In this document: one piece after another, positions 1 through 43,147 of the stretch | Position numbering within the stretch: the first letter of the stretch is position 1 | Layout of the letters: each line of letters opens with the position of its first letter | From: a virus | Taxonomy: Duplodnaviria > Caudoviricetes | Strand: one strand, 5' to 3' | Length of the DNA: 57,172 nucleotides | IMG/VR virus record: IMGVR_UViG_3300046757_000226 | Span: 1-57,172 of that record | Notes under the pieces: model-generated | Told to the model about the DNA's origin: nothing | The model's database searches: none | The model's input: the letters and a program-made list of their open reading frames with translations, nothing else | Made by a program: the position numbers and the translations under genes

Positions 1-2
1 GG

Positions 3-374: not shown

Positions 375-385
375 TCACTATTAGC

Positions 386-414: not shown

Positions 415-440
415 AATATAATATCATTAGGAGTATTACT

Positions 441-797
441 ATGGACGAACGTCTTGAAAAAGCATTAGATTTTTCAAATTACATGATCACGCTAAACAAC
501 CAAAAAAGATTACTTCGAGAAAAATTTGAAGAAGGGTTGTTGTATTTTTATGCTGGATCTCAATTTACAATTACTAAAGAACTAATTAACTTTTGTAAAG
601 CAATGGACGATGCAGATCAAGATAGTATAGTACTAATTGACGACCACGGTAATCCTGCATTAGTTGAAAATATCGAAGACTTTTACGGAAAAATACTTGC
701 GCAATATTTTGAAACAGCCAACTCTTATCATGCAGGATATATTTCATTAAAGAAAAATAGAAGTGTAGAAAAGTTAGTTGAATATGAGCAAGAGTAA
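441..797 (+). CDS. hypothetical phage protein (possibly fibre-assembly related)
   Basis: 118-aa ORF with promoter and SD, overlapping the next gene; no motif recognised. Confidence 0.75.
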   Translation: MDERLEKALDFSNYMITLNNQKRLLREKFEEGLLYFYAGSQFTITKELINFCKAMDDADQDSIVLIDDHGNPALVENIEDFYGKILAQYFETANSYHAGYISLKKNRSVEKLVEYEQE

Positions 798-1641
798 AGG
801 TGTTTTTCTTTTTGCTAAAAACAATGGTCAACTAGATTATGTAAAACAGGCAGTTTTCCTAGCAAGAAGAATTAAAAAATATTTAAATGTTCCTGTTTCT
901 CTTGCAACAGATAGTCCCGTATACTTAGAAGAAACGTATGGTACTGATGATTTTGACAAGGTTATAAAATTAGATTACACCGACGAACGTAATCTGCGTT
1001 ATTTTTATGATGGCGCAATGTCAAAAAAGAAGGGCGGATTCAAAAATGCAAATCGTGCAAGTGCATATGAATTATCTCCGTATGATGAAACACTACTATT
1101 AGATACTGATTACATTATATCTAATAATTTACTAGCATCTGTGTTTGAATCTGATGCAGACTTTATGATATATAAAAAATCAAGTGATATTTCTCAAGCT
1201 AGAAATGAAGACGAATTTCAAAAAATTGACGATGTTAGTGTTGATTTTTATTGGGCAACTGTTGTGTTTTTTAAAAAAACAGAAACTAATAAAAAGTTTT
1301 TTGATTTAGTTAAGCACATCGAAGACGAGTGGCATCATTATAGAAGAACATATCAAGTTAAGTCACATCTTTTTAGAAATGACTTTGCATTTAGCATTGC
1401 TATTCATATAATGAATGGATTTCAGCCAGGCAGTTTTGCCAAAGAGTTACCCGGAACAATGTTTTATACTGCCGACTTAGATATACTTTGGCAATTAGAT
1501 GATGATGAAATGATGTTTCTTGTAGGTAAGGAAAACTACTTAGGTGAATACACTACAGTAAGAACAAAAGGACTAACGGTTCATGTTATGAATAAGTTTA
1601 GTTTAACACGGATGATTGATATGGAGTTAGCAAATGAATAG
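784..1641 (+). CDS. GT-A fold glycosyltransferase (GT8-like nucleotide-diphospho-sugar transferase)
   Basis: SPYDETLLLDTD with DxD motif, later RND and HVMNK; second ATG (784) chosen as start. Confidence 0.75.
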   Translation: MSKSKGVFLFAKNNGQLDYVKQAVFLARRIKKYLNVPVSLATDSPVYLEETYGTDDFDKVIKLDYTDERNLRYFYDGAMSKKKGGFKNANRASAYELSPYDETLLLDTDYIISNNLLASVFESDADFMIYKKSSDISQARNEDEFQKIDDVSVDFYWATVVFFKKTETNKKFFDLVKHIEDEWHHYRRTYQVKSHLFRNDFAFSIAIHIMNGFQPGSFAKELPGTMFYTADLDILWQLDDDEMMFLVGKENYLGEYTTVRTKGLTVHVMNKFSLTRMIDMELANE

Positions 1642-2473
1642 AGGAATAGTTGTATTAGCTCAAAATAATGAAACAGATAATTATGTAGATCAAGCAATTT
1701 TATTAGCAATGAGTTTGTTAGTACATAATCCTGATACAAAAATTAGTTTAGTTACAAATGACAAAGTATCAAACCCAAATGTATTTGATAAAATTATTCC
1801 AATTCCTTACGGAGATCATGCTGAAGATAGTGACTGGAAAGTAGAAAACCGTTGGAAGTTGTATCATGCTAGTCCTTACGATGAAACTATCGTAATGGAC
1901 ACAGATATGTTAGTATTACAAAATATAGATGTATGGTGGGATTTTTTATCAAACTATGAATTATTTTTTACTAACAATGTGTTAACATACAGAGGAACTC
2001 CTGCAAATACACAATTTTATAGAAGAACATTTATTGATAGTAATCTTCCTAATTTGTTTAGCGGATTTCATTATTTCAAAAAATGTGAGTTTGCACAAGA
2101 CTTTTATGCATGGTTAGAGTTAGTGGTTAACAACTGGGAAACGTTTTACGAGCAACAATTAATGCCACAGTCTAGACCACAACAAGTTAGCATAGATGTA
2201 TGTGCGTCAATTGTTGCAAAAATTTTAGATTGTGAAGATGAAATTACTAATAGTATTTCAGCAATACCTACATTTGTACATATGAAAGCACATTGTCAAG
2301 ACTGGAAAGAAATAGAAGCTTCGTGGCTAGATAAAGTTGGATTTTATATTTCAAAAGATTGCAATGTTAAAATAGGAAACTTTTTACAAAATGGCATATT
2401 GCACTATACAGAAAATAGTTTTTTAGAAAAGACTCCGGTAGTTGAGCGTTATAGGAGTTTAGTAAATGTCTGA
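1634..2473 (+). CDS. GT-A fold glycosyltransferase, paralog of preceding gene
   Basis: SPYDETIVMDTD (DxD), FSGFHYF, FVHMK; same layout as 784-1641. Confidence 0.75.
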   Translation: MNRGIVVLAQNNETDNYVDQAILLAMSLLVHNPDTKISLVTNDKVSNPNVFDKIIPIPYGDHAEDSDWKVENRWKLYHASPYDETIVMDTDMLVLQNIDVWWDFLSNYELFFTNNVLTYRGTPANTQFYRRTFIDSNLPNLFSGFHYFKKCEFAQDFYAWLELVVNNWETFYEQQLMPQSRPQQVSIDVCASIVAKILDCEDEITNSISAIPTFVHMKAHCQDWKEIEASWLDKVGFYISKDCNVKIGNFLQNGILHYTENSFLEKTPVVERYRSLVNV

Positions 2474-3803
2474 ATTAGCAAGTTTATTAAGAAAATTAAA
2501 AGTAGAAGCTGTTTCAAATGATGCATATATCTATTATGAGAAAGAAACTGGATCAGTTAAAAAAGTTAGTAACAGAAAATACGATTCGGACGAATACGAA
2601 GTATTAATAGTTACTCAAGATGAAGCAAAGCCGTTACTTCAAGGGGAGTTTAGGCTTGATGAGTATATTATTGCATACGATGTTTCACTTAAAGATAGAA
2701 AATTAAAACGTAAAACATATGAAGATCAAAACAAAATTGCATCAACATTATGTTACGAATTACCATTAATAAAAAACTATAACGACGGACACAGTTCACT
2801 TGAACCAGCATATGACGGTGTTGATGTTTATATATGGGCAGTTGACGGATCATATGTAAAAGATCAAATAGTTTTTTATGAAAATAACGTTTATAAACTT
2901 TTAGCAGATAACGATGAAGGTCAAATATTTGGTAACGCAGAACTTTTTGTAAAGGATGTGCTATTAACAGACATGTCAACAGTTACACACGATTTACAAT
3001 TTTTAACAATGCAGCCTGAATACGAAGGCGTACATGTTGATGTTTGGTATGACGAATTATCACATACAGAAGGTCAACATGTTTGGCATCAAGGAACAGT
3101 TTACAGAATCAAAAAAGACCAAAAAGCAGAAACTAAATTTAGAAAAGCAAATTGTGAAATTATCGTAGAAGATGTTATTTTATACGCTGATGAAAACAAG
3201 TACTTAAAAGTTATTGACCCTAATGATCTAAACTCGGGTATGATTATATTAAACAATAATAAAATTTTTAGTATTAGATATGCTTCTGAAGAATTTGAAA
3301 AACAACAAGAAACTTCTTTTTGGAGAGAATCTAATAGACATTTGATTGTTTGGGATTCAAAAGAACTTTTAAAATTTGATTCATTAAATAAGAAAACTTT
3401 GTTTTACGAGACCGAACATACTGTAGTAGGTAAAGATACTTTAGAAAATGGACAATTGGTACTAGTAGGTACAAGGATTTATAATTATAAGACTAATAAG
3501 GATTATGACGTTATTATACAACAAAATTTTATTGATAAATGCTGGACAATTATACTTAATCCTTATACTAAAGCGTTTTTAAACACTAGTGGTTATTCTA
3601 TTAATGACAAACTATACTTTAGTGTAACAGAAAAATATGATCCCAATATTCTTTATAGAACTTTGGAAATAAATGCAGAAGAATTGCTTTGGGCAAAGCC
3701 AAAAACTATACCTTTCATATATGACAGCGAACTAGACGGAGTTAACGTAAGTATATACACAGCAAAATATTTTGAACACTATGCACATGAGGTAGTACAA
3801 TAA
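2466..3803 (+). CDS. hypothetical protein with two CBM5/12-like aromatic repeats
   Basis: Internal repeat YDGVDVYIWAVDGSYVKDQIVFYENNVYKL / YEGVHVDVWYDELSHTEGQHVWHQGTVYRI resembles the W-x5-Y-x2-G-x2-V-x-Y-x-G-x2-Y pattern of CBM5/12. Confidence 0.5.
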   Translation: MSELASLLRKLKVEAVSNDAYIYYEKETGSVKKVSNRKYDSDEYEVLIVTQDEAKPLLQGEFRLDEYIIAYDVSLKDRKLKRKTYEDQNKIASTLCYELPLIKNYNDGHSSLEPAYDGVDVYIWAVDGSYVKDQIVFYENNVYKLLADNDEGQIFGNAELFVKDVLLTDMSTVTHDLQFLTMQPEYEGVHVDVWYDELSHTEGQHVWHQGTVYRIKKDQKAETKFRKANCEIIVEDVILYADENKYLKVIDPNDLNSGMIILNNNKIFSIRYASEEFEKQQETSFWRESNRHLIVWDSKELLKFDSLNKKTLFYETEHTVVGKDTLENGQLVLVGTRIYNYKTNKDYDVIIQQNFIDKCWTIILNPYTKAFLNTSGYSINDKLYFSVTEKYDPNILYRTLEINAEELLWAKPKTIPFIYDSELDGVNVSIYTAKYFEHYAHEVVQ

Positions 3804-4736
3804 ATGAGTAAATTTAAGCCCATTGATTATGACATAATTTATTTGTCTTATGACGAGCCAAACGCAGAAAAAAACTATGCAGATTTATGTCAAAAAGTTC
3901 CGTGGGCTAAACGTGTTCACGGAGTAGAAGGTAGTGATGCTGCACACAAGGCTTGTGCAAAATTAAGTGAAACAGAAAGATTTATTACAGTCGACGGCGA
4001 CAACAGAATACGTGCAGAATTTCTAAATCAAGAAATTGATTTTACTGAACATGTTGATTTACAAAATGCTGTTATTAGTTGGTGCGGAAGAAATGAAATA
4101 AACGGATTGATGTACGGCAACGGCGGTATTAAATGCTGGCCAACTGATTATGTGTTAAATATGCGAACACATGAAAATGCTGATCCTAACAATGCACATG
4201 CACAAGTAGATTTTTGCTGGGATGCACAATATATACAAATGAATAGTGTTTATTCAGACGTATTTAATAATGAAACACCAGGACAAGCATGGAGAGCAGG
4301 TTTTAGAGAAGGTGTAAAACTTGCTACTGATCGAGGCGTAAGAATTACACCCCAAGAGTTTAAAGATAATCATTGGAGATGTTTACATTGGTTATACATT
4401 TGGACTATGGTAGGTGCAGATGTTGACAATGGCCTTTGGGCAATCTATGGCGCACGAGAAGGTCTGTATAAAACAATGTGTACAGATTGGGATTATGTAC
4501 AAGTTAGAGACTTTAAATATCTAAATAGTCTTTGGGACGAAGTTGAACCAAGGGTATCAATGGAAGGATTACAAGATTCTATTGAAGATTTAGGCGATAA
4601 AATTCTAGCTAAATTAGATATACCTATTGCAGCCCAGCCATTAGATGCTAATCAAAGTAAATTTTTTAAATCAGTTTATCAAAATCCTTCAAGAACCGAT
4701 AATCAAAGATTTATCGAAGAATTAAAGGACGTATAA
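3804..4736 (+). CDS. GT-A fold glycosyltransferase (phage type)
   Basis: FITVDGD DxD motif, YGNGGIK, AWRAGFREGVKL; paralog of 10898-11572. Confidence 0.7.
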   Translation: MSKFKPIDYDIIYLSYDEPNAEKNYADLCQKVPWAKRVHGVEGSDAAHKACAKLSETERFITVDGDNRIRAEFLNQEIDFTEHVDLQNAVISWCGRNEINGLMYGNGGIKCWPTDYVLNMRTHENADPNNAHAQVDFCWDAQYIQMNSVYSDVFNNETPGQAWRAGFREGVKLATDRGVRITPQEFKDNHWRCLHWLYIWTMVGADVDNGLWAIYGAREGLYKTMCTDWDYVQVRDFKYLNSLWDEVEPRVSMEGLQDSIEDLGDKILAKLDIPIAAQPLDANQSKFFKSVYQNPSRTDNQRFIEELKDV

Positions 4737-6148
4737 TGGGTGACGTTTTAACAGGATATAAGAGTGTAAGAGAAGAGCTCAATAACATCAGTTGTTCTAT
4801 GTGCCTTGCTAAATGGAAGCAAGTTACACTTCACTTGCAAACAGGTCATACGCACAGTTGTCACCACCCGGCAACTCATAAAATACCTTTAGAGGAGATA
4901 GAAGCAGATCCTAGTGCGCTACACAATACTAGTTTTAAAAAGCAACAACGTGCTAAAATGCTTAAAGGTGAACGCCCAGAAGAATGTGACTATTGCTGGA
5001 CAGCAGAAGACTCGTCAGACGGCTCTACATTTAGTGACAGAATAACTAAAAGTGCAGAAGAATGGGCTTGGCCTGAGAAAGATATTATTGCAAAGAGCTC
5101 TCCTAATGAAAATACAAATCCTAGCTACGTAGAAGTTAGTTTTTCAAATGCTTGTAACTTTGCGTGTACATACTGTTCACCTGAAATTAGTAGTACTTGG
5201 ATGCAAGAAATACAAAAGCATGGCGGGTATACTGGCACTACATATAATTTTAATAATTTAGAATGGATTGCACAAAACGGTAAAACACCAATTCCGCATA
5301 AAGATCCAAACCCTTATGTTGATGCGTTTTGGAAGTGGTGGCCAAAGTTGTATCCTGATTTGCATACATTTAGAATTACTGGCGGCGAGCCATTAATGGC
5401 AAAAGATACTTTCAAAGTTTTAGATTATATTATTGAGAATCCTAATCCTAACTTAGAATTAAACATAAACAGCAATCTTTGTGTACCAGACGGTTTAGTT
5501 GACAAGATGATAGAAAAGGCTAAACGCATTCAAGGCGAAGGTCTAATCAAAGATTTTAAAATCTATACTAGTGCAGAAGCTCACGGTAAACGTGCTGAGT
5601 ATATTAGACACGGTATGGATTATAACCAATGGATTGATAACTGCGATAAAGTTTTAACAGAAATACCAGATTGTAAAATTACAAATATGGCAACATACAA
5701 CTCATTAAGTTTGTCTAGTTATCAAGACTTAATGAAAGACTTGTTAGACTTGCGTAAAAAACATCACACTGATCCTGCAAAAAGCCATGCAGTAAGTTTA
5801 GATGTTAGTTATTTACGTTGGCCACCTCATCAATCAATATTAATAGTACAGAATGAAAAATATTTAAAAATGCTTGAAGATCAAGTAACATGGATGTTTC
5901 AAAATAAAGAGCATAGTCATTGGCCTCCATTGTGCGGCATTGGAATGTATGATTATGAAATTAATAGATTACAAAGGATATATTGGGTAATGCAGCAGAG
6001 TCCTAAGCACATCAAAGAAAAAGATCTTATCGAAGGAAGAAAAAACTTCGTTGCATTCTTTGATGAACACGACAAGCGTAGAGGAAAGAACTTCTTAGAA
6101 GTATTTCCTGAAATGGAAGATTTTTATTGGGAGTGTAAAACATTATGA
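4736..6148 (+). CDS. radical SAM enzyme with N-terminal Twitch/SPASM-like Cys cluster
   Basis: CNFACTYC, ITGGEP, N-terminal CLAKW...SCHH...ECDYC, C-terminal DKRRGKNFLEVFPE. Confidence 0.9.
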   Translation: MGDVLTGYKSVREELNNISCSMCLAKWKQVTLHLQTGHTHSCHHPATHKIPLEEIEADPSALHNTSFKKQQRAKMLKGERPEECDYCWTAEDSSDGSTFSDRITKSAEEWAWPEKDIIAKSSPNENTNPSYVEVSFSNACNFACTYCSPEISSTWMQEIQKHGGYTGTTYNFNNLEWIAQNGKTPIPHKDPNPYVDAFWKWWPKLYPDLHTFRITGGEPLMAKDTFKVLDYIIENPNPNLELNINSNLCVPDGLVDKMIEKAKRIQGEGLIKDFKIYTSAEAHGKRAEYIRHGMDYNQWIDNCDKVLTEIPDCKITNMATYNSLSLSSYQDLMKDLLDLRKKHHTDPAKSHAVSLDVSYLRWPPHQSILIVQNEKYLKMLEDQVTWMFQNKEHSHWPPLCGIGMYDYEINRLQRIYWVMQQSPKHIKEKDLIEGRKNFVAFFDEHDKRRGKNFLEVFPEMEDFYWECKTL

Positions 6149-7557
6149 GTAAAGGACTATTTGATTGGCGTAAAAGAGTACTAGACTCAGTTAGTCCTAG
6201 CTTCTGTGCTGCTAAGTGGCTTAATGCAACTATCCATTTAGGCCATGGTATGACACATAGTTGTCATTTGCCTATTCCTCATCCTATTGACAAGGAAGAA
6301 ATTAAAACTAATCCTAGTGCGTTGCATAATACAGCACACAAAAAGAAACAACGTGAGCGTATGATTAAAGGTGAACGACCACCTGAATGTGAGTACTGCT
6401 GGAAAATTGAAGATATTGGTAGAGATAATATTTCTGATAGAGTATATAAGAGTCAAATATACAAAGAAAAAGATATTATTGCAATCGCAGAAAATGATCC
6501 ATATGAAGATGTTATTCCAAAAACATTAGAAATTAGTTTTGATAGAACGTGTAACTTAGCATGTAGTTATTGTAATTCAAGTTATAGCACCACATGGGCA
6601 CAAGATATTAAAAAGAATGGTCCATATCAACAAATGAAATCAGATGGCGCAGGCGCCTATCATCATGACGGCGAATGGACCGAGCCTTACGGAAAGTTTA
6701 ACGAAGACAATCCTTATGTAGAAGCATTTTTTAAATGGTGGCCGCAATTAAGCAGTGAACTAGAAGAACTTAGGATAACTGGCGGCGAAGCATTAGTAAG
6801 TCATCAGTTTTGGAACTTTGCAAAAGTTGTAAAACAAAATCATGCTCCTAATTTAAGAATTGCAATTAATTCAAATCTTATGGTGAAAGATGATTTAATA
6901 CAAGACTTAGTTGATTTTACTAAACTTGATAATTATAAAGAGTTTGACTTGTTTACTAGTTGCGAAGCTACTGGATTGCAAGCAGATTATATAAGAGACG
7001 GACTAGAATATAATACTTGGAAAGATAACCTAGAATATGTTATTAGTAATGGACGTTTAAGATGTGCAACAATTATGATGACTATTACAAGTTTAAGTTT
7101 GTTTAGTATTACAGAATTCTTAGATGACATGGCAGAATTAAAAGCAAAATATGCACCTCATAAACCTGCTGTTGATTTAAATATTTTACGTTGGCCGAGT
7201 TTTATGAGCCCGTTAGCATTGCCCGATCATATTAAGGATCATTGCAGAGAAAAGTTAGAAGCATGGTCAGAAGAAAATAAGTTAAATCCGTTATTTAATC
7301 CAGGTGAAAGAGCACAAATACAAAGATTAATAGATTATATTGAAGTAGTAGATAAACCGCATAGACGCACAACTGAAGACAAAGATAAATTACAACACGA
7401 CTTTAAAAGTTTTTATGCACAGTATGATAAGCGTAGAGGTAAGGATATAGGTGTATTTCCAAAGATACTTACTGACTGGCTAGATACTATTGATTTAGAC
7501 AACACTATTCCGGTAATAGAAATGCATGAAGGGAGCATCACACACTATGACGACTGA
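6145..7557 (+). CDS. radical SAM enzyme, tandem paralog of 4736-6148
   Basis: CNLACSYC, ITGGEA, N-terminal CAAKW...SCH...ECEYC; shared blocks PSALHNT, KGERP, NPYV-AF-KWWP, DKRRGK. Confidence 0.9.
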   Translation: MSKGLFDWRKRVLDSVSPSFCAAKWLNATIHLGHGMTHSCHLPIPHPIDKEEIKTNPSALHNTAHKKKQRERMIKGERPPECEYCWKIEDIGRDNISDRVYKSQIYKEKDIIAIAENDPYEDVIPKTLEISFDRTCNLACSYCNSSYSTTWAQDIKKNGPYQQMKSDGAGAYHHDGEWTEPYGKFNEDNPYVEAFFKWWPQLSSELEELRITGGEALVSHQFWNFAKVVKQNHAPNLRIAINSNLMVKDDLIQDLVDFTKLDNYKEFDLFTSCEATGLQADYIRDGLEYNTWKDNLEYVISNGRLRCATIMMTITSLSLFSITEFLDDMAELKAKYAPHKPAVDLNILRWPSFMSPLALPDHIKDHCREKLEAWSEENKLNPLFNPGERAQIQRLIDYIEVVDKPHRRTTEDKDKLQHDFKSFYAQYDKRRGKDIGVFPKILTDWLDTIDLDNTIPVIEMHEGSITHYDD

Positions 7558-9629: not shown

Positions 9630-9660
9630 ATAAATAATAAACTACGTATATTATAGGAGT
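9627..9660 (+). promoter_or_regulatory. late-type TAAATA promoter(s) with AACTACGTATA motif and SD
   Basis: TAAATA at 9627-9632 and 9631-9636, AACTACGTATA 9640-9650, AGGAG 9655-9659, ATG 9666. Confidence 0.55.
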
Positions 9661-9665
9661 TTTAA

Positions 9666-10895: not shown

Positions 10896-10897
10896 TT

Positions 10898-29946: not shown

Positions 29947-29947
29947 A

Positions 29948-31565: not shown

Positions 31566-31569
31566 ATAT

Positions 31570-34195: not shown

Positions 34196-35096
34196 AACAC
34201 ATATGCCATTCGGAAATGCATTTTCAGTTGCAGATGACGAAGTAATGAAACTTTATACGCAAGACGCACCTCCTGCGATTGCACTTATGGATAACGACAT
34301 CCATACAAAGTTTTTAACTGAATATCGCGCATGGATAATGAAAACTAACAACAACCGAGTGACAGGATTAGACGAATACAAGTATGCTTGTTTTACAAAT
34401 GGTACTACAGAAGCATTTGATAAATTTTATGCAAAACATAGTACTAGAAGATTCCGTTTTTTTAAAGGTGAATACTTATACCACAGGCTAAGTTGCAGAA
34501 ACAATAAATTTGATTGGGAATATCTAGAAGATAAAAAATTAACAAAAGACGATGCTGTAATTATTAGTTTGCCGTTTTCAGACACAGGCAATAAACACAC
34601 TAATATGGATTTTATATTACAAAATTGTACAGCATTAGGTATTCCTGTATTATTAGATTGTGCATATTTTGGAGTATGCAATGACTTTAATTTTGACTTA
34701 ACACACCAATGTATTACTGATGTTACATTTAGTCTTTCAAAAAGTTTATATGCAGCACATCTAAGAATTGGTATGCGGTTAACAAGAGAAGACGATGATG
34801 ATCCATTATTTGTAACAAATAAAATTGGATATGTTAATCGTGCATCTGCTCACATTGGTAGAAAGTTAATAAAAAGATTTAGCCCAGATTATATCTATAA
34901 TAAGTACAGAGCACGACAGTTAGAAATATGTAATATTTTAAACGTTGAACCAAGTAACTGTGTGTTATTTGGCATAGGTGATAATAAGTGGAACGAATAT
35001 AATAGAGATAGAGAAACAAACAGGTTGAGTTTTCACAAATATTTAAACATTAGTGATAATACTGACTTGAGGAGGATTGCAAATGAAAAAAGGTAA
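34179..35096 (+). CDS. PLP-dependent fold-type I enzyme (class I/II aminotransferase-like)
   Basis: TNGTTEAF, LLDCAY, FSLSKSL (PLP lysine), RIG. Confidence 0.8.
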   Translation: MNKYNRTHMPFGNAFSVADDEVMKLYTQDAPPAIALMDNDIHTKFLTEYRAWIMKTNNNRVTGLDEYKYACFTNGTTEAFDKFYAKHSTRRFRFFKGEYLYHRLSCRNNKFDWEYLEDKKLTKDDAVIISLPFSDTGNKHTNMDFILQNCTALGIPVLLDCAYFGVCNDFNFDLTHQCITDVTFSLSKSLYAAHLRIGMRLTREDDDDPLFVTNKIGYVNRASAHIGRKLIKRFSPDYIYNKYRARQLEICNILNVEPSNCVLFGIGDNKWNEYNRDRETNRLSFHKYLNISDNTDLRRIANEKR

Positions 35097-36357
35097 AATT
35101 ATTAATATAGAATGGATGTGTGATTACAACTATTTTACTGATGAAGAATTCATGCCAATAAAAACAAAACTTCTAAAAGAAGAATTAACTAACACAGCAG
35201 CAGAGGGTGTTAATACTGTACTTGGAATATTATTCCTTGATGGGTTTTTACCTATTCCTGATAAACAGGCATTTATAGATCATATACAAGAGTTAGTTGA
35301 TCATGCAAAAAGTGTCGGTATAGATGACTTTTATATTGTTAGTGGACACGGTGAAACGTTTGAAGGACTACCTTGCAAACATTATTTCTTTGATAATGTA
35401 TTTAGAATTTGTTTAAATGCTTACAGAAATTTATATGATAGATTGCCACAACATTGGGATACTACAAAGGATAAAGCATTACTGTTAGGAGGAATGCCTG
35501 ATAGGTGCAATAGAATTGGCTTATTAGCAAGATTTTATGATCACGGCATGGTACCTAGTCAAATTAATCACACTTTTTTCCCACCTTGGGCACCTAATGA
35601 TCAAGAATGGTGTAAGAACTATATGCTTACAAATTTCCAACATTGGGACGAAGAAAAATATAATCAATTTCTAATTGATTGTGAAAAGCGAGTTGACGAT
35701 AGATATTTGACATGCATGGATTGGTATGGAAATTATACAAGAGAAGAATTTGATAGACCTTGGTATGAAGTACGTGATACTGAATGGGTAAGAAATCCTA
35801 CACTTATTGATTCCAAAGTATACGAAGATGTGCTATTTGATGTTGTAAGTGAAGGTCCTAATTACTGGGGTACTGGAAACTATGAATTTCTTACAGAAAA
35901 ACTTTGGCGTTGTATTTTACATAGAAGACCTTTTATTTTAGCAGCTTGGCCCGGGCAATGGGATTACTTAGAACACTTAGGATATAAGACTTTTGCAGAA
36001 TATCTTCCTATACCAGACTATGGTAAAATTGAAGATGACGAAGAGCGCATGGTTGCTGTAGTTGAAAATACAAAGTATCTTTTATCTCATAGAGAACATG
36101 ATGAAGAAATAGCTAAAGATGTAGAGTTTAATTATAATTTGTTAATGCAAAAAAATGACGAACAAAAAACAATGTGGAGACATTGGCATGACGATTTAGG
36201 AGTAGATTGGTGGCAACTAGAAAAGCTAATTGTTAATCGTATTGGTTATGACGATGTTATTATGAACTTACCAGAAGAATATTTACCTGACCATCTGTAT
36301 GATGACTCGGACAGGGGCACAGGTCATCGTGCTGATAATAAAGGCAATAATGAATGA
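35083..36357 (+). CDS. GT-B fold glycosyltransferase-like protein (GT10-like TEK motif), paralog of 7547-8887
   Basis: FDVVSE...FLTEKLWR...RPFIL...LGYKTF; GAGGAGG SD before ATG 35083. Confidence 0.55.
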   Translation: MKKGKIINIEWMCDYNYFTDEEFMPIKTKLLKEELTNTAAEGVNTVLGILFLDGFLPIPDKQAFIDHIQELVDHAKSVGIDDFYIVSGHGETFEGLPCKHYFFDNVFRICLNAYRNLYDRLPQHWDTTKDKALLLGGMPDRCNRIGLLARFYDHGMVPSQINHTFFPPWAPNDQEWCKNYMLTNFQHWDEEKYNQFLIDCEKRVDDRYLTCMDWYGNYTREEFDRPWYEVRDTEWVRNPTLIDSKVYEDVLFDVVSEGPNYWGTGNYEFLTEKLWRCILHRRPFILAAWPGQWDYLEHLGYKTFAEYLPIPDYGKIEDDEERMVAVVENTKYLLSHREHDEEIAKDVEFNYNLLMQKNDEQKTMWRHWHDDLGVDWWQLEKLIVNRIGYDDVIMNLPEEYLPDHLYDDSDRGTGHRADNKGNNE

Positions 36358-37271
36358 AGAAGTGTGCAGCATTTTGGAAACATACTAATTTAAGAAATAG
36401 CGACAAGATATTCCCATGTTGTCGTTTTAAACAGCCTGTTGGCGTCTTTGATGGAAATGTTTCTGAAATATTACACAGCGATGTTTATAATAAACTAAGA
36501 CTAACAGATGTTTCTACTCTGCCAGCTTGTGCAAAATGTATGTACGAAGAAGATAACGGCAAAAAAAGTTTACGTGAAAAATTTAATGAAACATACGACA
36601 TGGAAACTATTGGCTTAGAATATTTAGAAGTAGGTTTAGACAACATATGTAATCTAACTTGTGATGGATGTTGGGCAGAGTTTAGCAGCAGTTGGAGTGA
36701 AAAACAGTTTCCTGACAAGCCAAAAAGTTTTCATATACGTTCTGGCAAAGACATTGAAGTATTGCCTGACACACTTAACAAAATATTATTTTTAGGCGGC
36801 GAGCCATTAATGACAACACGTCATTATAAAATTCTACAAAAGATAAAAACGCCTGAAAATGTAGAAGTGACGTACAATACAAACGCAACATTTATGTTGT
36901 CCGAGCAACATATAAGTTTACTAAACACATTTAAGAAAGTACATTTTATAGTTAGTATAGATGCTTACGGTGAACTAAATGACAAAGTACGCAGCGGAAG
37001 TAAATGGAGCCAGATACTTGAATTTATTGATCAAATCAAAAGCACTAAATTTAGCATGTCAATAAACAGCGTATTACATATTAATAACTGGCGCGGCTTT
37101 ATAGACTTAGAAAATTTTGTCAATGAAGTTAATGTTGATTGGGAAGTTAATGTATTAACTTTTCCTAAGCATTTAGACGTAGCTAATAATAACAACAAAA
37201 AAGAAGTTTTAGATTTAATAAGAAAAACAAATATACCAAATAAAGAATATGTTATTAACCACTTATCATAA
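36354..37271 (+). CDS. radical SAM enzyme with N-terminal Twitch-like cluster
   Basis: KCAAFW...PCC...CAKC, CNLTCDGC, LGGEP, NTNAT, VSIDA. Confidence 0.9.
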   Translation: MKKCAAFWKHTNLRNSDKIFPCCRFKQPVGVFDGNVSEILHSDVYNKLRLTDVSTLPACAKCMYEEDNGKKSLREKFNETYDMETIGLEYLEVGLDNICNLTCDGCWAEFSSSWSEKQFPDKPKSFHIRSGKDIEVLPDTLNKILFLGGEPLMTTRHYKILQKIKTPENVEVTYNTNATFMLSEQHISLLNTFKKVHFIVSIDAYGELNDKVRSGSKWSQILEFIDQIKSTKFSMSINSVLHINNWRGFIDLENFVNEVNVDWEVNVLTFPKHLDVANNNNKKEVLDLIRKTNIPNKEYVINHLS

Positions 37272-37272
37272 T

Positions 37273-37761
37273 ATGTTGAGCAAAGCAATAGAAGAAGCTC
37301 AGAGTATAGATTATATCAAGCCGTATCTTTTGAAGGTAACTGATGTAGACGATTCTCCTGATTTGACTGATATTCATCCTAGAGATAGAGAAGACATGGA
37401 TATGAGATTTCTATCGCCTTTAATTCATAAGGATATATTTAAGTTAACTAGTAAATTAATAGAACAAGACTCTAATATTATAGATGCACTTATAATAGCA
37501 TTTGCACCTCAAACACAATTATACGAACACGTAGATACAGTTGAGCTAGAACCGTATGCTAAAATAGATTGGTTAAGTGTTTATATGCCTATGTTTGTTC
37601 CTAGTATAGACTCTAGTAAAGTTGGTGTAAAAGTAGGAGACATAATTTATGATCATAAAGAAACAATTATATTTGACACGCAGATTCCTCACAGTGCTTG
37701 GAACTGGACAGACGACTGGTGGGTGTCGCTTAGACTTAGTGTAAAGAAAGAAATAATATGA
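37273..37761 (+). CDS. Fe(II)/2OG oxygenase (Asp/Asn beta-hydroxylase-like)
   Basis: LYEHVD, FDTQIPHSAWN; similar to 27838-28419. Start 37273 or 37249. Confidence 0.65.
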   Translation: MLSKAIEEAQSIDYIKPYLLKVTDVDDSPDLTDIHPRDREDMDMRFLSPLIHKDIFKLTSKLIEQDSNIIDALIIAFAPQTQLYEHVDTVELEPYAKIDWLSVYMPMFVPSIDSSKVGVKVGDIIYDHKETIIFDTQIPHSAWNWTDDWWVSLRLSVKKEII

Positions 37762-38816
37762 AGATATCAACTAACAATCATTGGGATCCGCTAGAAGAAA
37801 TAGTAGTAGGTATTGCAGATCATGCTCGTGTACCTACAGTAGATGCAAGCACAATGAACATGAGTTATACTAACTATGACATTGAAGATGTTAAGCCGTT
37901 AGAAGGCGCATACCCAAAATGGTTGATTGACGAAGCAAATGAAGATCTACAAGGTGTAGCCGACACACTTACTAGTTTAGGTGTTAAAGTACATAGACCT
38001 AAAGCACTTGACCATAGCGTAAAGTACAGCACACCAGAATGGGAAACAACAGGATGGTATACATGGTGTCCAAGAGATCTGTTACTACCGCTAAACAATT
38101 TAATGATTGAAACACCTAGTGCATGTCGTTCGCGGTTGTTTGAAACAAGAGCATACCATGACATATACTTAGAAGCAGTACGTGACGGTGTAGAATGGAT
38201 TGCTGCACCAAAGCCTATACTGCCAGATGAAAGTTTTCAGTTTGAAGACATTGACGGCAAACCTAGTTTGCGTAATTTAGAACCTATTTTTGATGCACCA
38301 AATTGTGTACGTTTAGGTAAAGACATTCTATTCCAAATTAGTAATACTGGTAACCATTTAGGTATGCAGTGGTTAAAGAATACACTAGAGCCTAGAGGAT
38401 ATAGGATACATGCTGCTGAACACATTTATAGTTTTGCACACATGGATAGTACTATTGTTCCATTAGCACCTGGAAAAGTATTGTTAAACAGCACAAGAGT
38501 AAATCCGAATAACTGTCCTAAGGTATTTGAAAAATGGGATAAGATTTATTTTGAAGATGTAAATATTAATCCAGCAACAGATTCGGGACCAGGCAGCATT
38601 AGCCCATGTTCACCTTATATTGGTATGAATATATTAAGTGTAGATCCGACTACAGTTATTGTAGGTGATGATCAAACTAATTTAATACGTGTATTAGAAC
38701 AGCAAGGGTTTACTGTAGCACCTGTAAAAATGCGTCATGCACAAACACTTAGTGGCGGACTGCATTGTACTACATTAGATTTACGCAGACGAGGCGGCTT
38801 AGAAGATTATACTTGA
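37758..38816 (+). CDS. amidinotransferase (glycine / inosamine-phosphate amidinotransferase family)
   Basis: WDPLEEIVVG, CPRD, FDA, HMDS, GGLHCTTLD give the Cys-His-Asp pentein catalytic set. Confidence 0.9.
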   Translation: MKISTNNHWDPLEEIVVGIADHARVPTVDASTMNMSYTNYDIEDVKPLEGAYPKWLIDEANEDLQGVADTLTSLGVKVHRPKALDHSVKYSTPEWETTGWYTWCPRDLLLPLNNLMIETPSACRSRLFETRAYHDIYLEAVRDGVEWIAAPKPILPDESFQFEDIDGKPSLRNLEPIFDAPNCVRLGKDILFQISNTGNHLGMQWLKNTLEPRGYRIHAAEHIYSFAHMDSTIVPLAPGKVLLNSTRVNPNNCPKVFEKWDKIYFEDVNINPATDSGPGSISPCSPYIGMNILSVDPTTVIVGDDQTNLIRVLEQQGFTVAPVKMRHAQTLSGGLHCTTLDLRRRGGLEDYT

Positions 38817-39652: not shown

Positions 39653-39739
39653 ACAGTATTTATGGTGTTATCAGAAGTCTTTGTTTAAGATAGAATCATA
39701 GATAAGTATACTATATGACATGAAGAAAGGAAATAGATG
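39650..39739. promoter_or_regulatory. divergent late-type promoter pair
   Basis: Minus: TAAATA (39662-39657), 4 nt, ATG 39652. Plus: TAAGTA (39703-39708), then ATG-ACA-TGA minigene, AAGGA SD and ATG 39737. Confidence 0.65.
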
Positions 39740-40813
39740 AAAATTTCTGAAATACCCGGATTAGGATCTTTTGGACATTATATCGATGATGTTGACTTTT
39801 CACACCTGTCAAAAGAAGAATGGTTTGAAATAGGAAGAATACACCTAAACGGTCTTGTAACAATACTTAGGAACGTCAACATAACAAGAGATCAGTATGT
39901 TGCACGTATAAGAGAATGGGGACCAAATAAAGGAACCCGTAATTCACGAGCACACTTTAAAATTAAATATGGAGAAAACTTTGATCCTAAAAACGAAGGA
40001 GCGTTTGACCAGTTTAATGTTAGCGAAGAAGATCGTAATTATTTAAAATTTAAACGTCACTTTGTTGAACAAACAGAAGGCGGCAATTATCTTACACGTA
40101 TTAGTGGAGAAAGAGATGCTGAAGGTAATTCTCTAGGAGCATTTTCGGATGGCGAACTATATTGGCACAGTAATGAATCTAGCGAATTAACTTTTGCACC
40201 AGAAGTAGCACTATTAGGCTATCAAAATATGACTGGCAGTAGTACTGGATTTGTACAAACTGCGGATCTTTATCAATCTTTTAGTGACAGTTTCCGTAGT
40301 GAACTTGATGAAATGGTTGTAATTCATGAATATATTCCAGGCGGCATTAATGACAGAGAAATTACAGATCCTAATTTAGGTAACGTACTAAGGATGGAAT
40401 TTTGTCAGTTTGACGGATCAGAAGTTCCTATGGTGTTAACAAGTCCGGGCGGACACAAAGGACTACACTATACAACTAATACTGCAACTGGTATTAAAGG
40501 CATGACCAAAGAAGAGTCTAGTAAAATATTTAAAATAATTGACGAGAAATTGTTTACAGACAAATATGTTTACGATCATAAATATGTAACAGATAATGAG
40601 CTGTTATTGTTTGATAACTCTATTACAATGCATAGAAGAAAAGACCCAGGACATCCTAATAGACTGGCATACAGAATACAGTATGATCCGTCTAATGTTT
40701 TAGATAGTCCTTGGTATCCGTACAATCATTTACCTAAATATGCAGAAAAATATAAAAAGCAAACACACGAGCTTATTAATCTTTTACAATTAACGGATTT
40801 TAAATTACCATAA
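39737..40813 (+). CDS. TauD/TfdA-family dioxygenase
   Basis: GLVTILRN, LYWHSN, STGF, LLFDNSITMHRR, RLAYRI. Confidence 0.8.
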   Translation: MKISEIPGLGSFGHYIDDVDFSHLSKEEWFEIGRIHLNGLVTILRNVNITRDQYVARIREWGPNKGTRNSRAHFKIKYGENFDPKNEGAFDQFNVSEEDRNYLKFKRHFVEQTEGGNYLTRISGERDAEGNSLGAFSDGELYWHSNESSELTFAPEVALLGYQNMTGSSTGFVQTADLYQSFSDSFRSELDEMVVIHEYIPGGINDREITDPNLGNVLRMEFCQFDGSEVPMVLTSPGGHKGLHYTTNTATGIKGMTKEESSKIFKIIDEKLFTDKYVYDHKYVTDNELLLFDNSITMHRRKDPGHPNRLAYRIQYDPSNVLDSPWYPYNHLPKYAEKYKKQTHELINLLQLTDFKLP

Positions 40814-42666
40814 TGAAAAATGTTTATCTCTTTCAAGTGAACTATCAAATGGGTCACGGACAATATACTAGTCTTTGGCTACCCTATAGCATTGCTTCGG
40901 TTTGGACCTATGTAAATCAATTTGAAGAAGTTAGTAGTAATTTTAAAATAAAAGAGTGTATATTTAAACGTGAAGAATTTGAAGATGTTCTTGCAAGATT
41001 AGATAATCCTGATGTTTGCTTGTTTAGTCATTACCTTTGGAATGATAGTTATAACCTACAACTAGCAAAATTAATTAAACAAAGATTTCCTAATACTATT
41101 ATAATATTCGGCGGACCACAAGTTGATGAAATAGGATTTAATTTTACTCTTGCTAATCCATTTGTTGATGCTATTGTAGTAAATGAAGGAGAAGTATCGT
41201 TACATCATCTGCTAAAGGATTACTTAAACAACGAACTAAAGCCAATTTATCAAATACAAAAGAGAGTAGATCCTGCAGGATTGCCAAGTCCATTTGTAGA
41301 TGGCGATATTTTACAGACAGTAGTAGATGATAATCCAGGTATTAAATGGGCTACGTGTTTAGAAACAAACAGAGGATGTCCGTTTAGTTGTACATTCTGT
41401 GATTGGGGTAGTTTAACGCAAGCAAAAATTAAAAAGTTTGATCTTGGCAAAGTCTTTAGTGAATGGGATTGGATTGTAAATAACGGTATTGAGTACGTAC
41501 ATATAGCAGATGCTAACTTTGGTGTGTTTTATGATCGTGATAAAGAAATTGTTGATTACATTGTTAAAAAGAAAAAAGAAACAGACTATCCACACAATGT
41601 AAGTGCTACGTGGTATAAAAATAGTGCTGAAAAAATGATTGGACTAGCAAAGATACTTGAAGATGTAAATCTTAACAAAGGATTTACGTTAAGTGTACAA
41701 AGTATGAATGAAGAAACATTAGATAGCATTGAACGTAAGAATATGGAAATGTCAAAGTTAGCTGATATGTATGCAGAGTGTGACAAACAAGATGTTGCAT
41801 ACTACACTGAGTTTATATTAGGATTGCCTTTTGAAACAAAACAAACGTGGCGAGAAGGATTGTGTGCAGCAGTAGAAGCAGGTTGTCATTTCTTTATTGA
41901 TATACATCCGTTAGAAGTATTAAAAAACAGTCAATTTGCAAAACAAGTAAAAGAATTTAATTACGAAGTATTTAATTTTTCTGTTACTATGCCTAATCAA
42001 ATATCACGTATACCAGAAAACCATAACTATGTAATTGCTAGTGAGTTTATGTCACGTCAAGACTATATTGATTCTTGGATGTGGGGCTGGGTAATGTTAC
42101 ACTTTCATCATTATGCGTGGACACAAGGACTTGCTAAATTTGCACGTCAACATATGGATATTTCATATTTAGATTTCTATGAAGACTTACTTGAAAATTG
42201 TATTAGAAAAGATAAACTTCTAAATACGTTGTATGAACAACAAGAACAGCAATTAAAAGACTTCTTTTGGAATACCGAAAGTGGTGTAGTGTTTGATAAC
42301 GATAATGTCATTGTTGTATTAAATCAAATTGAATGGCATAAAAATAGAGAACAAGTTCTTAATAGCATTGAAAAATGGGCTGTAAACTTTTTCAAAGATC
42401 TAGACAACGACTTAGTCAGTGAAGTTATACGTTTTTCAGAAACATATCTTGTTAACAAAGACAATAGCTTTGATTACACTAAAAACTTTGAATATAATAT
42501 AAATGAAGTATGTAATGAAAATGCTAAATTAACTAAAGAAAAATATACATATAATTTTAAACATAAGTTTAAATGGACAGATGATAAAGACTTTAAAGAT
42601 AAACTATTCTATAAAAACAGAAACGGGTTTAGTATTAAGAAAGTAGAAAGGATTAGCAATGCCTAA
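40813..42666 (+). CDS. cobalamin-dependent (class B) radical SAM enzyme, probable methyltransferase
   Basis: N-terminal B12-binding-like domain (FSHYLWN, IFGGP, NEGE), ETNRGCPFSCTFC, ADANFG, EFILGLP. Confidence 0.88.
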   Translation: MKNVYLFQVNYQMGHGQYTSLWLPYSIASVWTYVNQFEEVSSNFKIKECIFKREEFEDVLARLDNPDVCLFSHYLWNDSYNLQLAKLIKQRFPNTIIIFGGPQVDEIGFNFTLANPFVDAIVVNEGEVSLHHLLKDYLNNELKPIYQIQKRVDPAGLPSPFVDGDILQTVVDDNPGIKWATCLETNRGCPFSCTFCDWGSLTQAKIKKFDLGKVFSEWDWIVNNGIEYVHIADANFGVFYDRDKEIVDYIVKKKKETDYPHNVSATWYKNSAEKMIGLAKILEDVNLNKGFTLSVQSMNEETLDSIERKNMEMSKLADMYAECDKQDVAYYTEFILGLPFETKQTWREGLCAAVEAGCHFFIDIHPLEVLKNSQFAKQVKEFNYEVFNFSVTMPNQISRIPENHNYVIASEFMSRQDYIDSWMWGWVMLHFHHYAWTQGLAKFARQHMDISYLDFYEDLLENCIRKDKLLNTLYEQQEQQLKDFFWNTESGVVFDNDNVIVVLNQIEWHKNREQVLNSIEKWAVNFFKDLDNDLVSEVIRFSETYLVNKDNSFDYTKNFEYNINEVCNENAKLTKEKYTYNFKHKFKWTDDKDFKDKLFYKNRNGFSIKKVERISNA

Positions 42667-43147
42667 GTTTGTAACTAATGTAGAACCATTTTGGCAACAA
42701 GAATTAAAGGATCATACATACGCTAGGACAGTAGACTGGAGTGCAAAAAACTTTGATCATCTGAATAAAGAAGATTATAATACTGGACATTTATTGCAAA
42801 GTTTTAACGAAGAGTTACCGTTGTGTGCAGACGCTTTTAAAGACGTCTTAGACGCTCATACAGCGTCTGTAAGCTGGACTTGTATAAAGCCCAATGTAAT
42901 ACTTCCAACACATAAAGACACCTTTTATACGCTTAGACAGGAGCATAATGTAGAGCTAGATGATTGTTATAGATATTTAATTTTTTTAGAAGATTGGATA
43001 TTTGGACAATATGTAGGCTTTGAGCATTGTAGTATTACTAAATGGAAAGCTGGAGATGTATGGTGTTTTACAGGACACGAATTGCACTATGCAGTAAATG
43101 CTAGTGCATTGAATTTTCATTCATGTCAGGTAAGTACGTTTAGTTAG
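42659..43147 (+). CDS. Fe(II)/2OG or cupin-type oxygenase
   Basis: ILPTHKD, LHYAVN. Confidence 0.65.
   Translation: MPKFVTNVEPFWQQELKDHTYARTVDWSAKNFDHLNKEDYNTGHLLQSFNEELPLCADAFKDVLDAHTASVSWTCIKPNVILPTHKDTFYTLRQEHNVELDDCYRYLIFLEDWIFGQYVGFEHCSITKWKAGDVWCFTGHELHYAVNASALNFHSCQVSTFS

Follow-up and report, generated by a model that had tools for sequence, protein, structure and literature searches.

What could a bacteriophage make with a run of 47 intact, contiguous open reading frames (ORFs) that includes radical S-adenosylmethionine (rSAM) enzymes, oxygenases and proteins with glycosyltransferase (GT) folds in large numbers? This question is raised by the window analysed here, the whole of the linear, 57,172-base IMG/VR virus record IMGVR_UViG_3300046757_000226, in which the ORFs of an island at 441-43147 overlap or abut at their ends (summed ORF length over span 1.009, largest gap 84 nt). 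CheckV rates the record at 16% of a genome, and we therefore take the window to be a fragment of a jumbo phage, a marine myophage that is not in culture. The island is two-layered: a conserved core operon (441-13611) is followed by a mosaic cassette of ~30 kb (13608-43147). The answer that we put forward, with somewhat less than even confidence, is that the island encodes a cytoplasmic pathway that builds a strain-specific glycan, heavily tailored with guanidino, methyl and hydroxy groups, on an acceptor made by the phage, most likely a tail or fibre protein of the virion. The core genes, named by their first coordinate, are as follows.

441-797, + strand: g441, conserved 118-aa protein, first core gene; no Pfam or PHROG match; in 108 of 157 related loci
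778-1641, + strand: g778, candidate GT-A (GT8-like); D109 and D111 invariant in 14 sequences; glycogenin at a sub-threshold E of 0.78
1634-2473, + strand: g1634, GT8-like candidate, paralogue of g778; phrog_1903
2466-3803, + strand: g2466, weak CBM5/12-like motif (E 0.007, below cut-off); variably present, in 44 of 157 loci
3804-4736, + strand: g3804, predicted GT-A fold, the module's most conserved gene; model pLDDT 85.4; Foldseek matches RmlT, TarP and PBCV-1 A64R
4736-6148, + strand: g4736, core rSAM with N-terminal twitch domain; NF033640 330 bits; CX3CX2C
6145-7557, + strand: g6145, N-terminal-twitch rSAM paralogue, 38% identical to g4736; NF033640 303 bits
7526-8887, + strand: g7526, predicted GT-B fold; AF2 pLDDT 82.8; Foldseek match to WaaG at 1.8e-5, also to LmbT, GtfA and T4 BGT
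8874-9629, + strand: possible SGNH/GDSL-like hydrolase or acyltransferase, weak; GDSL-family chain at E 0.24; conserved G10, N35/N43 and H189
9666-10895, + strand: g9666, full-length protein of the UDP-glucose/GDP-mannose dehydrogenase (UGDH) family; PF00984 1.3e-17, PF03721 5.2e-17
10898-11572, + strand: g10898, predicted GT-A, paralogue of g3804 (32% identity; jackhmmer 1e-96)
11553-12635, + strand: rSAM with weak likeness to BlsE and to a tungsten-cofactor maturase; PF04055 36.5 bits
12604-13611, + strand: rSAM, last gene common to close relatives at 97%; PF04055 43.9 bits

The first layer is widely shared among viruses. All five of g441, g778, g1634, g3804 and g4736 occur in 97 of 157 related viral loci, and in each of the 97 they stand in the order seen in the window. 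The median identity of g3804 is 74% in 120 loci, that of its neighbours 51-58%, and a g3804-like gene adjoins a g4736-like gene in 77 of the 108 loci that have both. The second layer begins where this conservation ends: close relatives at 97-99% identity share the genes up to 13611, and gene content then changes. In relative G006, for example, the core is ~97% identical and the right flank 82-87%, while pieces of the island are 71-85% identical, some of them inverted, and the island is ~7 kb shorter than that of the window. The first-pass annotation of this DNA, made from the letters alone, had anticipated a conserved GT core beside variable tailoring genes; this arrangement is indeed seen in the relatives, with the correction that the core reaches ~13.6 kb and not 4.7 kb. 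The number of rSAM matches per record is 1 in phage RsoM2USA, 2 in G001, 11 each in G002 and G006, 13 in this window and 19 in G003, which has 11 members of the N-terminal-twitch (N_Twi) family above cut-off. Because the matches range from 1 to 19 across relatives, the island of the window is a large instance of a trait that varies throughout the lineage, and it is not unique. A further IMG/VR contig (L079), also of 57,172 bases, is distinct from the window (best identities 25-49%) and has a variant island of its own, with N_Twi rSAMs, a GT-B-like gene, an amidinotransferase (39%) and epimerases.

Is the island phage DNA at all? Its enzyme density is like that of a bacterial gene cluster, and some homologous contigs have been binned in bacterial metagenome-assembled genomes (MAGs), so that a chimera could be suspected in which the assembly had joined a bacterial biosynthetic island to phage DNA, as the first-pass annotation had itself conceded. 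GC content is uniform, at 0.31-0.37 across the island and 0.34-0.40 in the right flank. At least 95% of sampled words of 20001-30000 are present in 14 DNA sequencing runs, 11 of them flagged as possible sources of the record; two runs without this flag cover 30 of 30 bins of 12001-32000, and contigs of these two independent seawater runs span the junction of core and cassette (13543-16706 and 13318-16497). Of the 347 IMG/VR stretches matched with g4736, 345 encode relatives of it, and for g3804 the count is 357 of 366. Hundreds of viral contigs share the synteny, which is also kept in RsoM2USA; the related viral contigs reach 385 kb, and the largest has terminal repeats and is rated 100% complete. 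The island is phage DNA, and the probability that we leave to a chimera is negligible. Megablast of both halves of the window against 50,697 phage records gave no match. In the RNA libraries X15 and X16, short contigs of 99% identity and a depth of 2-4 fall into 14 and 17 of 30 bins, and such contigs cannot show transcription, strand or timing.

The rSAM proteins are the most numerous enzymes of the island. Besides the four of the core, the cassette has ten.

15855-17171, + strand: g15855, N-terminal-twitch rSAM; NF033640 380 bits
17168-18181, + strand: rSAM; PF04055 41.5 bits
19258-20190, - strand: rSAM; PF04055 51.6 bits
20159-21499, - strand: N-terminal-twitch rSAM; NF033640 329 bits
30435-31565, + strand: N-terminal-twitch rSAM; NF033640 213 bits
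31570-32586, - strand: rSAM; PF04055 45.1 bits
33347-34195, + strand: g33347, rSAM; PF04055 33 bits; common to cyanophage S-SCSM2R (41% over 271 aa to ORF306)
36354-37271, + strand: N-terminal-twitch rSAM; NF033640 189 bits
38807-39652, - strand: g38807, rSAM by CX3CX2C and jackhmmer family membership
40813-42666, + strand: g40813, B12-binding rSAM of KedN5-like C-methyltransferase type; PF02310 34.6 bits, PF04055 35.8 bits

The count of 14 rSAM proteins given in the first-pass annotation holds. All 14 have the CX3CX2C cluster motif. Pfam PF04055 is matched in 13 island proteins, 12 of them above the gathering score; g6145 lies under it (24.4 against 29.5 bits), and g38807 has only a weak Fer4_12 match, these two joining the family by jackhmmer. 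Thirteen of the 14, g38807 included, form one superfamily in jackhmmer searches, from which g40813 stands apart. In the latter a PF02310 domain precedes PF04055, in agreement with the single B12-dependent enzyme that had been called, and its score against the KedN5 subfamily model NF033712 is 187 bits, well under the cut-off of 700. Six proteins belong to NCBIfam NF033640 (N_Twi_rSAM; 189-380 bits, curated cut-off 170), a family of twitch domain-containing rSAM proteins with the auxiliary-cluster domain at the N-terminus, and this cut-off is exceeded in none of 14 control genomes. Among 1.84 billion entries the family has 718 representatives that reach E 1e-30 or better. One metagenomic protein of 681 aa (P0126) has a GT-A domain of the g10898 type (53% over 226 aa) fused to an N_Twi rSAM, a fusion that may be an artefact of gene calling; it is the one match to a window family among the N-terminal extensions of 23 N_Twi proteins of at least 560 aa, these being drawn from 150 listed. 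Together with the adjacency of g3804-like and g4736-like genes in 77 of 108 loci, this one fusion suggests that rSAM chemistry and glycosyl transfer are coupled.

Twitch and SPASM rSAMs are typically peptide maturases, and one may ask whether the island matures a protein instead. Under this explanation the twitch rSAMs and the cupins resembling Asp/Asn hydroxylases would modify a phage protein or a peptide akin to ribosomally synthesised and post-translationally modified peptides (RiPPs), with glycosylation as one of several marks. Many of the weak NCBIfam matches of the island rSAMs are to peptide maturases, enzymes of the PF05118 family hydroxylate protein residues, and cellular N_Twi arrays occur without GTs. 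The maturase matches all lie far below their cut-offs, however, and the core rSAM usually adjoins a GT-A gene and is once fused to one. No RiPP precursor was noticed among ORFs of at least 80 aa or in the intergenic gaps, in a survey that included no systematic search aimed at small ORFs. We consider maturation of a protein or peptide a decidedly improbable main function.

The GT-fold proteins give the pathway its apparent direction. In the AF2 model of g3804, residues 1-160 form a GT-A fold (Z 10.0, rmsd 3.1, 138 residues against 6p61 (VIA)), compared with Z 8.5 for nucleotidyltransferases of the same fold class; the model also resembles the Che8 GT, and the DxD residues D64 and D66 of g3804 are invariant in 21 sequences. 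Sequence searches say much less: at least 7,999 database proteins match g3804, and the 120 listed all lack a Pfam domain and are named no more precisely than 'hypothetical protein'. A PDB sequence profile search returned only one ribonuclease at E 0.1 for the g3804 family and nothing for the g7526 family. The sixth protein of this kind lies in the cassette.

35077-36357, + strand: g35077, predicted GT-B fold by paralogy to g7526

The four GT-A proteins claimed earlier are thus of two kinds, g3804 being modelled as GT-A with g10898 as its paralogue, while g778 and g1634 have a DxD motif and the sub-threshold glycogenin match. The two that had been called GT10-like prove to be a modelled GT-B fold and its paralogue; g7526 and g35077 have no Pfam or PDB sequence match, and there is no GT10 chain among the listed structural matches, so that GT10 membership does not follow. 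In all, six GT-fold proteins are predicted, which would transfer the sugar units of the proposed pathway.

Enzymes that could supply and modify such sugars are found in both layers. Those of the cassette are listed below with its remaining genes.

13608-14342, + strand: truncated UGDH paralogue by Pfam, 244 aa, without the C-terminal UDP-binding domain; first gene of the variable cassette
14324-15196, + strand: NAD-dependent sugar epimerase/dehydratase of the short-chain dehydrogenase/reductase (SDR) type; PF01370 6.3e-32
15193-15801, + strand: g15193, possibly Rossmann-like; no Pfam or PDB match; hhalign P 0.001 to SDR
18158-19309, - strand: protein without Pfam, jackhmmer or hhalign match
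21417-22109, - strand: g21417, borderline QueC-like C-terminus; PF06508 21.7 bits against a cut-off of 22
22784-23473, + strand: small protein of possible kinase fold (Kdo/WaaP/RIO/APH-like), a lead from an atlas match by features and structure
25590-26033 and 26026-26637, + strand: two paralogous, putatively Rossmann/SDR-like proteins; hhalign probability 89.4 to epimerase; glucose 1-dehydrogenase at E 0.006
27288-27845, - strand: protein without Pfam or hhalign match
28412-29104, - strand: possible kinase fold, by paralogy to 22784-23473
29029-29946, + strand: protein without Pfam match
34179-35096, + strand: g34179, for which an aminotransferase label finds no support
37758-38816, + strand: g37758, L-arginine-dependent amidinotransferase, closest to StrB1; 1bwd at E 4e-92, 312 bits, residues 3-351

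The sugar-centred enzyme content described in the first-pass annotation is borne out by the six predicted GT folds, the UGDH, the epimerase and the amidinotransferase of StrB1 type. Both UGDH-family proteins and the epimerase have Pfam matches, one UGDH being cut to 244 aa. The truncated protein, at the boundary of core and cassette, is not among the genes matched in relative L003 and has no match of at least 40% identity in the 157 loci; it may be a duplicate in decay, or else a dehydrogenase that has taken on another role. Several other calls fared less well. For the two SDRs, the SGNH protein, the two kinase folds and the QueC-like protein there are the weak or borderline matches given in the lists, the kinase folds and the QueC-like label standing as leads; NCBIfam and PDB profile searches with g21417 gave nothing further. 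The pyridoxal-phosphate aminotransferase proposed for g34179 receives no support from Pfam, NCBIfam or PDB searches, the methyltransferase proposed for g15193 has no Pfam or PDB match, and the GNAT-like gene was not located. For ten unannotated island proteins a Pfam search at E up to 10 returned no family for nine and one irrelevant match (E 0.17) for the tenth.

The amidinotransferase matches StrB1, an inosamine-phosphate amidinotransferase from the streptomycin pathway, over its full length, and also HsvA, SxtG and AGAT; it has homologues in phages S-SCSM2R and CP220. With the kinase-fold proteins it lends the 'cyclitol' put forward in the first-pass annotation the standing of a lead. A free small molecule is then a competing product, either a guanidinylated aminocyclitol resembling an aminoglycoside or a nucleoside-type metabolite, acting on the host or on competitors. 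The StrB1 match (E 4e-92), the two APH/Kdo-kinase-like folds, the twitch rSAMs and weak BlsE-like and KedN5-like matches are consistent with this, as is the label 'antibiotic synthesis genes' used in the available text of the S-SCSM2R report (PMC12801897). Against it, no exporter, resistance gene or inositol-phosphate synthase is recognised among the window proteins, six GT-fold proteins exceed the needs of known aminoglycosides, the conserved placement beside tail genes is left unexplained, and strain-level turnover of the cassette fits a surface or recognition target better. A free metabolite therefore seems quite unlikely to us.

All 47 island products are soluble as predicted from hydropathy, since no ORF has a 19-residue window at a Kyte-Doolittle mean of at least 1.6. 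This agrees with the first-pass annotation, which had seen no transporter, and since none of the 47 proteins has a membrane segment the block would lack machinery for lipid-linked export. The membrane initiating transferase, flippase and polymerase of a lipid-linked polysaccharide pathway (Wzx/Wzy or ABC type) are likewise not among the 47 products. It is highly unlikely, for this reason, that the island remodels the host envelope, altering lipopolysaccharide, capsule or cell-wall glycans so as to exclude superinfection or to time lysis: a flippase, a polymerase and a polyprenyl-phosphate transferase are all absent, and the phage looks lytic, with no lysogeny genes in the fragment. The idea draws on the Kdo/WaaP-like kinase and WaaG-like GT-B resemblances, on a PAP2 phosphatase beside the CP220 module, and on surveys of huge phages in which, in the available text (bioRxiv 10.64898/2026.10.24.761521), phage GTs are classed as envelope-associated auxiliary genes.

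The oxygenases of the island, all of them in the cassette, complete the inventory.

22143-22793, + strand: g22143, probable Asp/Asn-hydroxylase-like cupin; hhalign to 32570-33307 with probability 86.7, P 4.3e-6
23466-24038, + strand: g23466, family X, oxygenase-like; HxD...H
24035-24562, + strand: g24035, family X, oxygenase-like; invariant H105, D107 and H159; AtsK at E 0.042
24547-25593, + strand: g24547, fusion of a cold-shock domain with a 2-oxoglutarate (2OG)-Fe(II) oxygenase; PF00313 5.7e-8, PF13640 3e-10
26623-27297, - strand: g26623, Asp/Asn beta-hydroxylase-like cupin; PF05118 8.1e-6
27838-28419, - strand: g27838, Asp/Asn beta-hydroxylase-like cupin; PF05118 7.6e-10
29948-30442, + strand: g29948, family X, oxygenase-like; 31% identical to S-SCSM2R ORF308, annotated as 2OG-Fe(II) oxygenase
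32570-33307, - strand: g32570, Asp/Asn beta-hydroxylase-like cupin; PF05118 6.6e-5
37249-37761, + strand: g37249, Asp/Asn beta-hydroxylase-like cupin; PF05118 2.2e-5
39737-40813, + strand: g39737, TauD/TfdA-family Fe/2OG dioxygenase; PF02668 1.8e-18
42659-43147, + strand: g42659, family X, oxygenase-like by family membership; last island gene

Six of these have Pfam support: g24547 has a 2OG-FeII_Oxy_3 domain joined to its cold-shock domain, g26623, g27838, g32570 and g37249 match Asp_Arg_Hydrox, and g39737 matches TauD. Family X (g23466, g24035, g29948 and g42659) comprises four small paralogues with an invariant HxD...H (H105, D107, H159), weakly linked to AtsK, 2OG and AspH profiles (hhalign P 0.008-0.015, against 0.61 for a kinase control). 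With g22143 placed by hhalign, 11 of the 12 oxygenases claimed earlier are supported; the twelfth was not located. The oxygenase part of 24547-25593 is of prolyl-hydroxylase type and may be directed at nucleic acid, and a paralogous oxygenase lies at 49191-49751 on the - strand.

Upon the observed gene content, folds, synteny, mosaicism, promoter conservation and phage origin a scheme may be built, whose substrates, order of steps, acceptor and timing we infer. Nucleotide sugars would first be oxidised and epimerised, and the kinase-fold proteins may phosphorylate an intermediate. The amidinotransferase would add an amidino group from arginine to an aminosugar or aminocyclitol. The six GT-fold proteins would then join the units on an acceptor produced in the cytoplasm of the infected cell. 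Afterwards the rSAMs and oxygenases would act on C-H bonds, through methylation, hydroxylation, epimerisation or decarboxylation. The acceptor would most probably be a tail or fibre protein encoded next door, with DNA in second place. A virion surface protein is favoured because of the placement beside tail and fibre genes together with the strain-level turnover of the cassette. In relative L003 the genes upstream of the core match tail-fibre and virion PHROGs, and in RsoM2USA, in the available text of its description (PMC8504454), the core follows the tail sheath gene ORF359 and the virion protein genes ORF361 and ORF356 on the same strand. The virion target is thus suggested by gene neighbourhood. 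On the other side of the island the window has the following genes.

43144-44301, - strand: fibre-type protein of 385 aa; N-terminal domain as in the major tropism determinant of Bordetella phage (Mtd_N, 3.5e-9); adjoins the island end
45822-48331, - strand: MoxR-type AAA ATPase and DUF2201 metallopeptidase/VWA pair, the ATPase sharing 50% identity with its counterpart in the PA5oct group of Pseudomonas jumbo phages
51970-55390, - strand: second enzyme block, with a QueE-like rSAM, GTP cyclohydrolase I, HIT-family, phosphoribosyltransferase-like and cysteine-dioxygenase-like cupin proteins

The right flank also encodes an exonuclease-like gene. Around the Mtd_N gene, a search of 43000-57172 gave no template/variable repeat of a diversity-generating retroelement, nor was a reverse transcriptase noticed. 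The second enzyme block hints at 7-deazapurine or pterin chemistry, with no QueD, clear QueC or DpdA in the window; a QueD candidate in it, g53708, was rejected as a HIT-family protein.

The promoters bear on when the island would be expressed.

386-414, + strand: sigma-70-type promoter TTGACA-17-TATACT, the best site of 1-20000 (11/12), 26 nt before g441
47166-47194, 51464-51492 and 53665-53693, - strand: perfect TTGACA-N17-TATAAT promoters, where 0.18 are expected and 0 of 100 shuffles reach three

Among 67 distinct upstream regions of relatives, 46 keep the promoter before g441 by a strict definition and 55 by a loose one, against a background of 1.3%; the spacers vary. Since the core has its own conserved promoter, it is not simply read through from the upstream genes. 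The three perfect promoters lie in the gaps before the VWA/DUF2201, exonuclease and GTP cyclohydrolase genes, none of them inside the island, and a near-perfect one stands at 48408-48380 before the MoxR ATPase gene. The T4-type late promoter TATAAATA is depleted, with 3 sites against 12 expected. A candidate motif, CGYATATTATAG, was rejected, its 2 sites being not above the chance expectation of 0.86. Because of the conserved -35-box promoter and the depleted T4 late motif, the timing cannot be called late, as the first-pass annotation had called it.

Relatives of the core rSAM outside viruses also inform the choice of substrate. In a scan of one genome per prokaryote species, made with an alignment of the closer orthologues since that of the paralogues was too divergent, such relatives occur in 118 of 164 matched stretches and 77 loci; the single protein g15855 as query found no cellular relative. 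Fifty-eight of the 77 loci carry titles of Bdellovibrionota lineages. There, as in the window, the rSAM family (38-46% identical to g4736) is multiplied in tandem on chromosomes of these predatory bacteria, in arrays of 3 to 8 genes that are nearly all N-terminal-twitch paralogues: seven N_Twi genes and one other rSAM in L216 (9923-21374), seven rSAM-family genes in L183, four in L210 and three in L212. In contrast to the window, no GT core stands alongside, and a g3804-like match is present in only 5 of the 77 loci, L173 (described below) being one of the five. The neighbours of the L216 array are housekeeping genes on a chromosome-scale contig, and small ORFs inside it, tried as precursors, read by sequence as insertion-sequence remnants. 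Some apparently cellular matches, on short or very large MAG contigs, come with the whole phage core and are probably viral. A 335-kb contig (L173) in a MAG titled Candidatus Neomarinimicrobiota has the full phage core in the window's order at 40-72% identity and is probably a mis-binned jumbo phage; L172 is a 153-kb contig of the same MAG. Mis-binning of phage may also account for several matches at 51-55% that lie on short contigs in MAGs of Pelagibacter, Flavobacteriales and the like.

Several of these observations weigh against a tailored glycan on the virion. Because the Bdellovibrionota arrays stand without GTs, the N_Twi family need not act on sugars, and relative G002 has its rSAM cluster at a long distance from its core rSAM. 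No acceptor was found, and no glycosylated protein or modified base is on record for any member. The aminotransferase and methyltransferase that would supply the pathway were not confirmed. The -35 box fits expression by the host RNA polymerase, early or middle at least as well as late, and early or middle expression is usual for DNA-modifying enzymes. The conservation of g3804 (74% against 51-58%) is odd for an enzyme that acts on a variable glycan.

Several of these facts suit the rival explanation that the product is placed on DNA: a decorated guanidino sugar, perhaps bearing a positive charge, would sit on a modified base of the phage genome and block host nucleases. Very high conservation of g3804 is expected if the substrate is invariant, as DNA is. 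The core's conserved -35-box promoter resembles the perfect-consensus promoters of the flank, all the enzymes are cytoplasmic, the cold-shock domain fused to the oxygenase at 24547-25593 is of a nucleic-acid-binding kind, and the flank holds the GTP cyclohydrolase and the QueE-like rSAM. Glycan modification of phage DNA is known, as referenced in the available text of PMC12619734. On the other hand, no base-activating enzyme (pyrimidine hydroxymethylase or DpdA/TGT) is present in the window, which is 16% of a genome. Two complete relatives have a ThyA equivalog (259 and 342 bits, cut-off 108), no obvious hydroxymethylase and no TGT/DpdA match, and a search for the TGT family gave no match in three relatives. 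The QueC-like match is borderline, the QueD candidate is a HIT protein, and the RsoM2USA module lies inside a block of tail genes. On balance we regard DNA hypermodification as unlikely, while keeping it as the second candidate, and continue to prefer the virion glycan.

Attached to virions or DNA, the product would be a glycan of a complexity unusual for one made by a virus, and would probably help to determine host range or the evasion of defences; as a free metabolite, it would represent natural-product chemistry carried out by a phage. A bolder version, which we offer as a doubtful conjecture, is that a widespread marine and freshwater jumbo-phage lineage uses N_Twi rSAMs, oxygenases and a StrB1-type amidinotransferase to make a guanidinylated aminoglycoside-like or cyclitol glycoconjugate, released or DNA-bound, with the cassette swapped as a module of an arms race. 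If so, viruses would have a new class of natural-product or hypermodification chemistry, and the N_Twi rSAMs would receive their first function. That family and the X-family oxygenases are in any case untapped enzymology, and S-SCSM2R on Synechococcus provides a harmless cultured model for the shared submodule.

How does the island compare with known systems? The statement in the first-pass annotation that no characterised system resembles it was too strong. Phages with swarms of rSAM genes have been on record since 2010 and never explained. In the available text of PMC2853527, Timms et al. described 11 and 12 rSAM proteins in CP220 and CPt10, in clusters that each contain an amidinotransferase and were read as an interchangeable module. 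Nishimura et al. reported in 2017 a marine T4-like genome with 12 rSAM genes (PMC5332604, available text), and a relative of the window has 19 rSAM matches. The CP220 locus shares with the island five rSAMs, an amidinotransferase 30.5% identical to g37758, two genes of nucleotide-diphospho-sugar-transferase type and a position near baseplate genes, and a PAP2 phosphatase stands beside it. It differs in its size of ~9 kb and its phage lineage (Firehammervirus), and no oxygenase swarm, UGDH or GT-B is annotated in it; tblastn of g15855 against CP220 found no N_Twi-type rSAM. Cyanophage S-SCSM2R, cultured on Synechococcus WH7803, has an rSAM 41% identical to g33347, an X-family oxygenase (24-31%) and an amidinotransferase (35.5%; an 'inosamine amidinotransferase') among five GTs, in a module of ~8 kb with a single rSAM. 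In the available text its authors (2025) call the shared genes 'antibiotic synthesis genes' of unclear purpose (PMC12801897).

The closest match in gene order is RsoM2USA, the only cultured phage with a g3804 homologue among the 50,697 records. Its ORF347-355 have, in the same order, a g441-like gene, two GT8-like genes, a g3804-like gene (44%), an N_Twi rSAM (44%), a g10898-like gene (45%) and a g15193-like gene. This is a minimal form, with one rSAM match in 344 kb, no variable cassette and genes annotated as hypothetical. The 'moraphages', large aquatic phages described in 2025, have four putative GT orthogroups in their lineage core, and both DNA and virion glycosylation are discussed for them (PMC12619734); the term 'radical SAM' is absent from the available text of that paper. 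Virion glycosylation is known from mycobacteriophages, as referenced in the same available text, and the glycosylation clusters of Megavirinae are clade-specific (PMC10117803, available text). Like the pathway proposed here, the systems of mycobacteriophages, PBCV-1 and Megavirinae use the virus's own cytoplasmic GTs and sugar-nucleotide enzymes to decorate structural proteins. To our knowledge none of the three employs swarms of rSAMs or oxygenases.

Streptomycin-type aminocyclitol chemistry has in common with the island the full-length likeness of g37758 to StrB1 and the presence of twitch rSAMs and small kinases. BtrN is a twitch rSAM of aminocyclitol chemistry; the twitch domain of the island proteins is N-terminal, however, their family NF033640 is distinct, and no inositol-phosphate synthase is recognised. 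The literature searched, supplements excepted, yielded no study in which any of these modules or the N_Twi family is characterised, and none that joins 'radical SAM', 'glycosyltransferase' and 'jumbo phage'. The window ties the rSAM swarms of phages to a widespread, conserved module of GT-fold and twitch-rSAM genes beside tail genes. What is new in it, compared with all of these systems, is the size of the island, its six N_Twi paralogues, its swarm of oxygenases, and an architecture in which a core with its own promoter is joined to a variable cassette.

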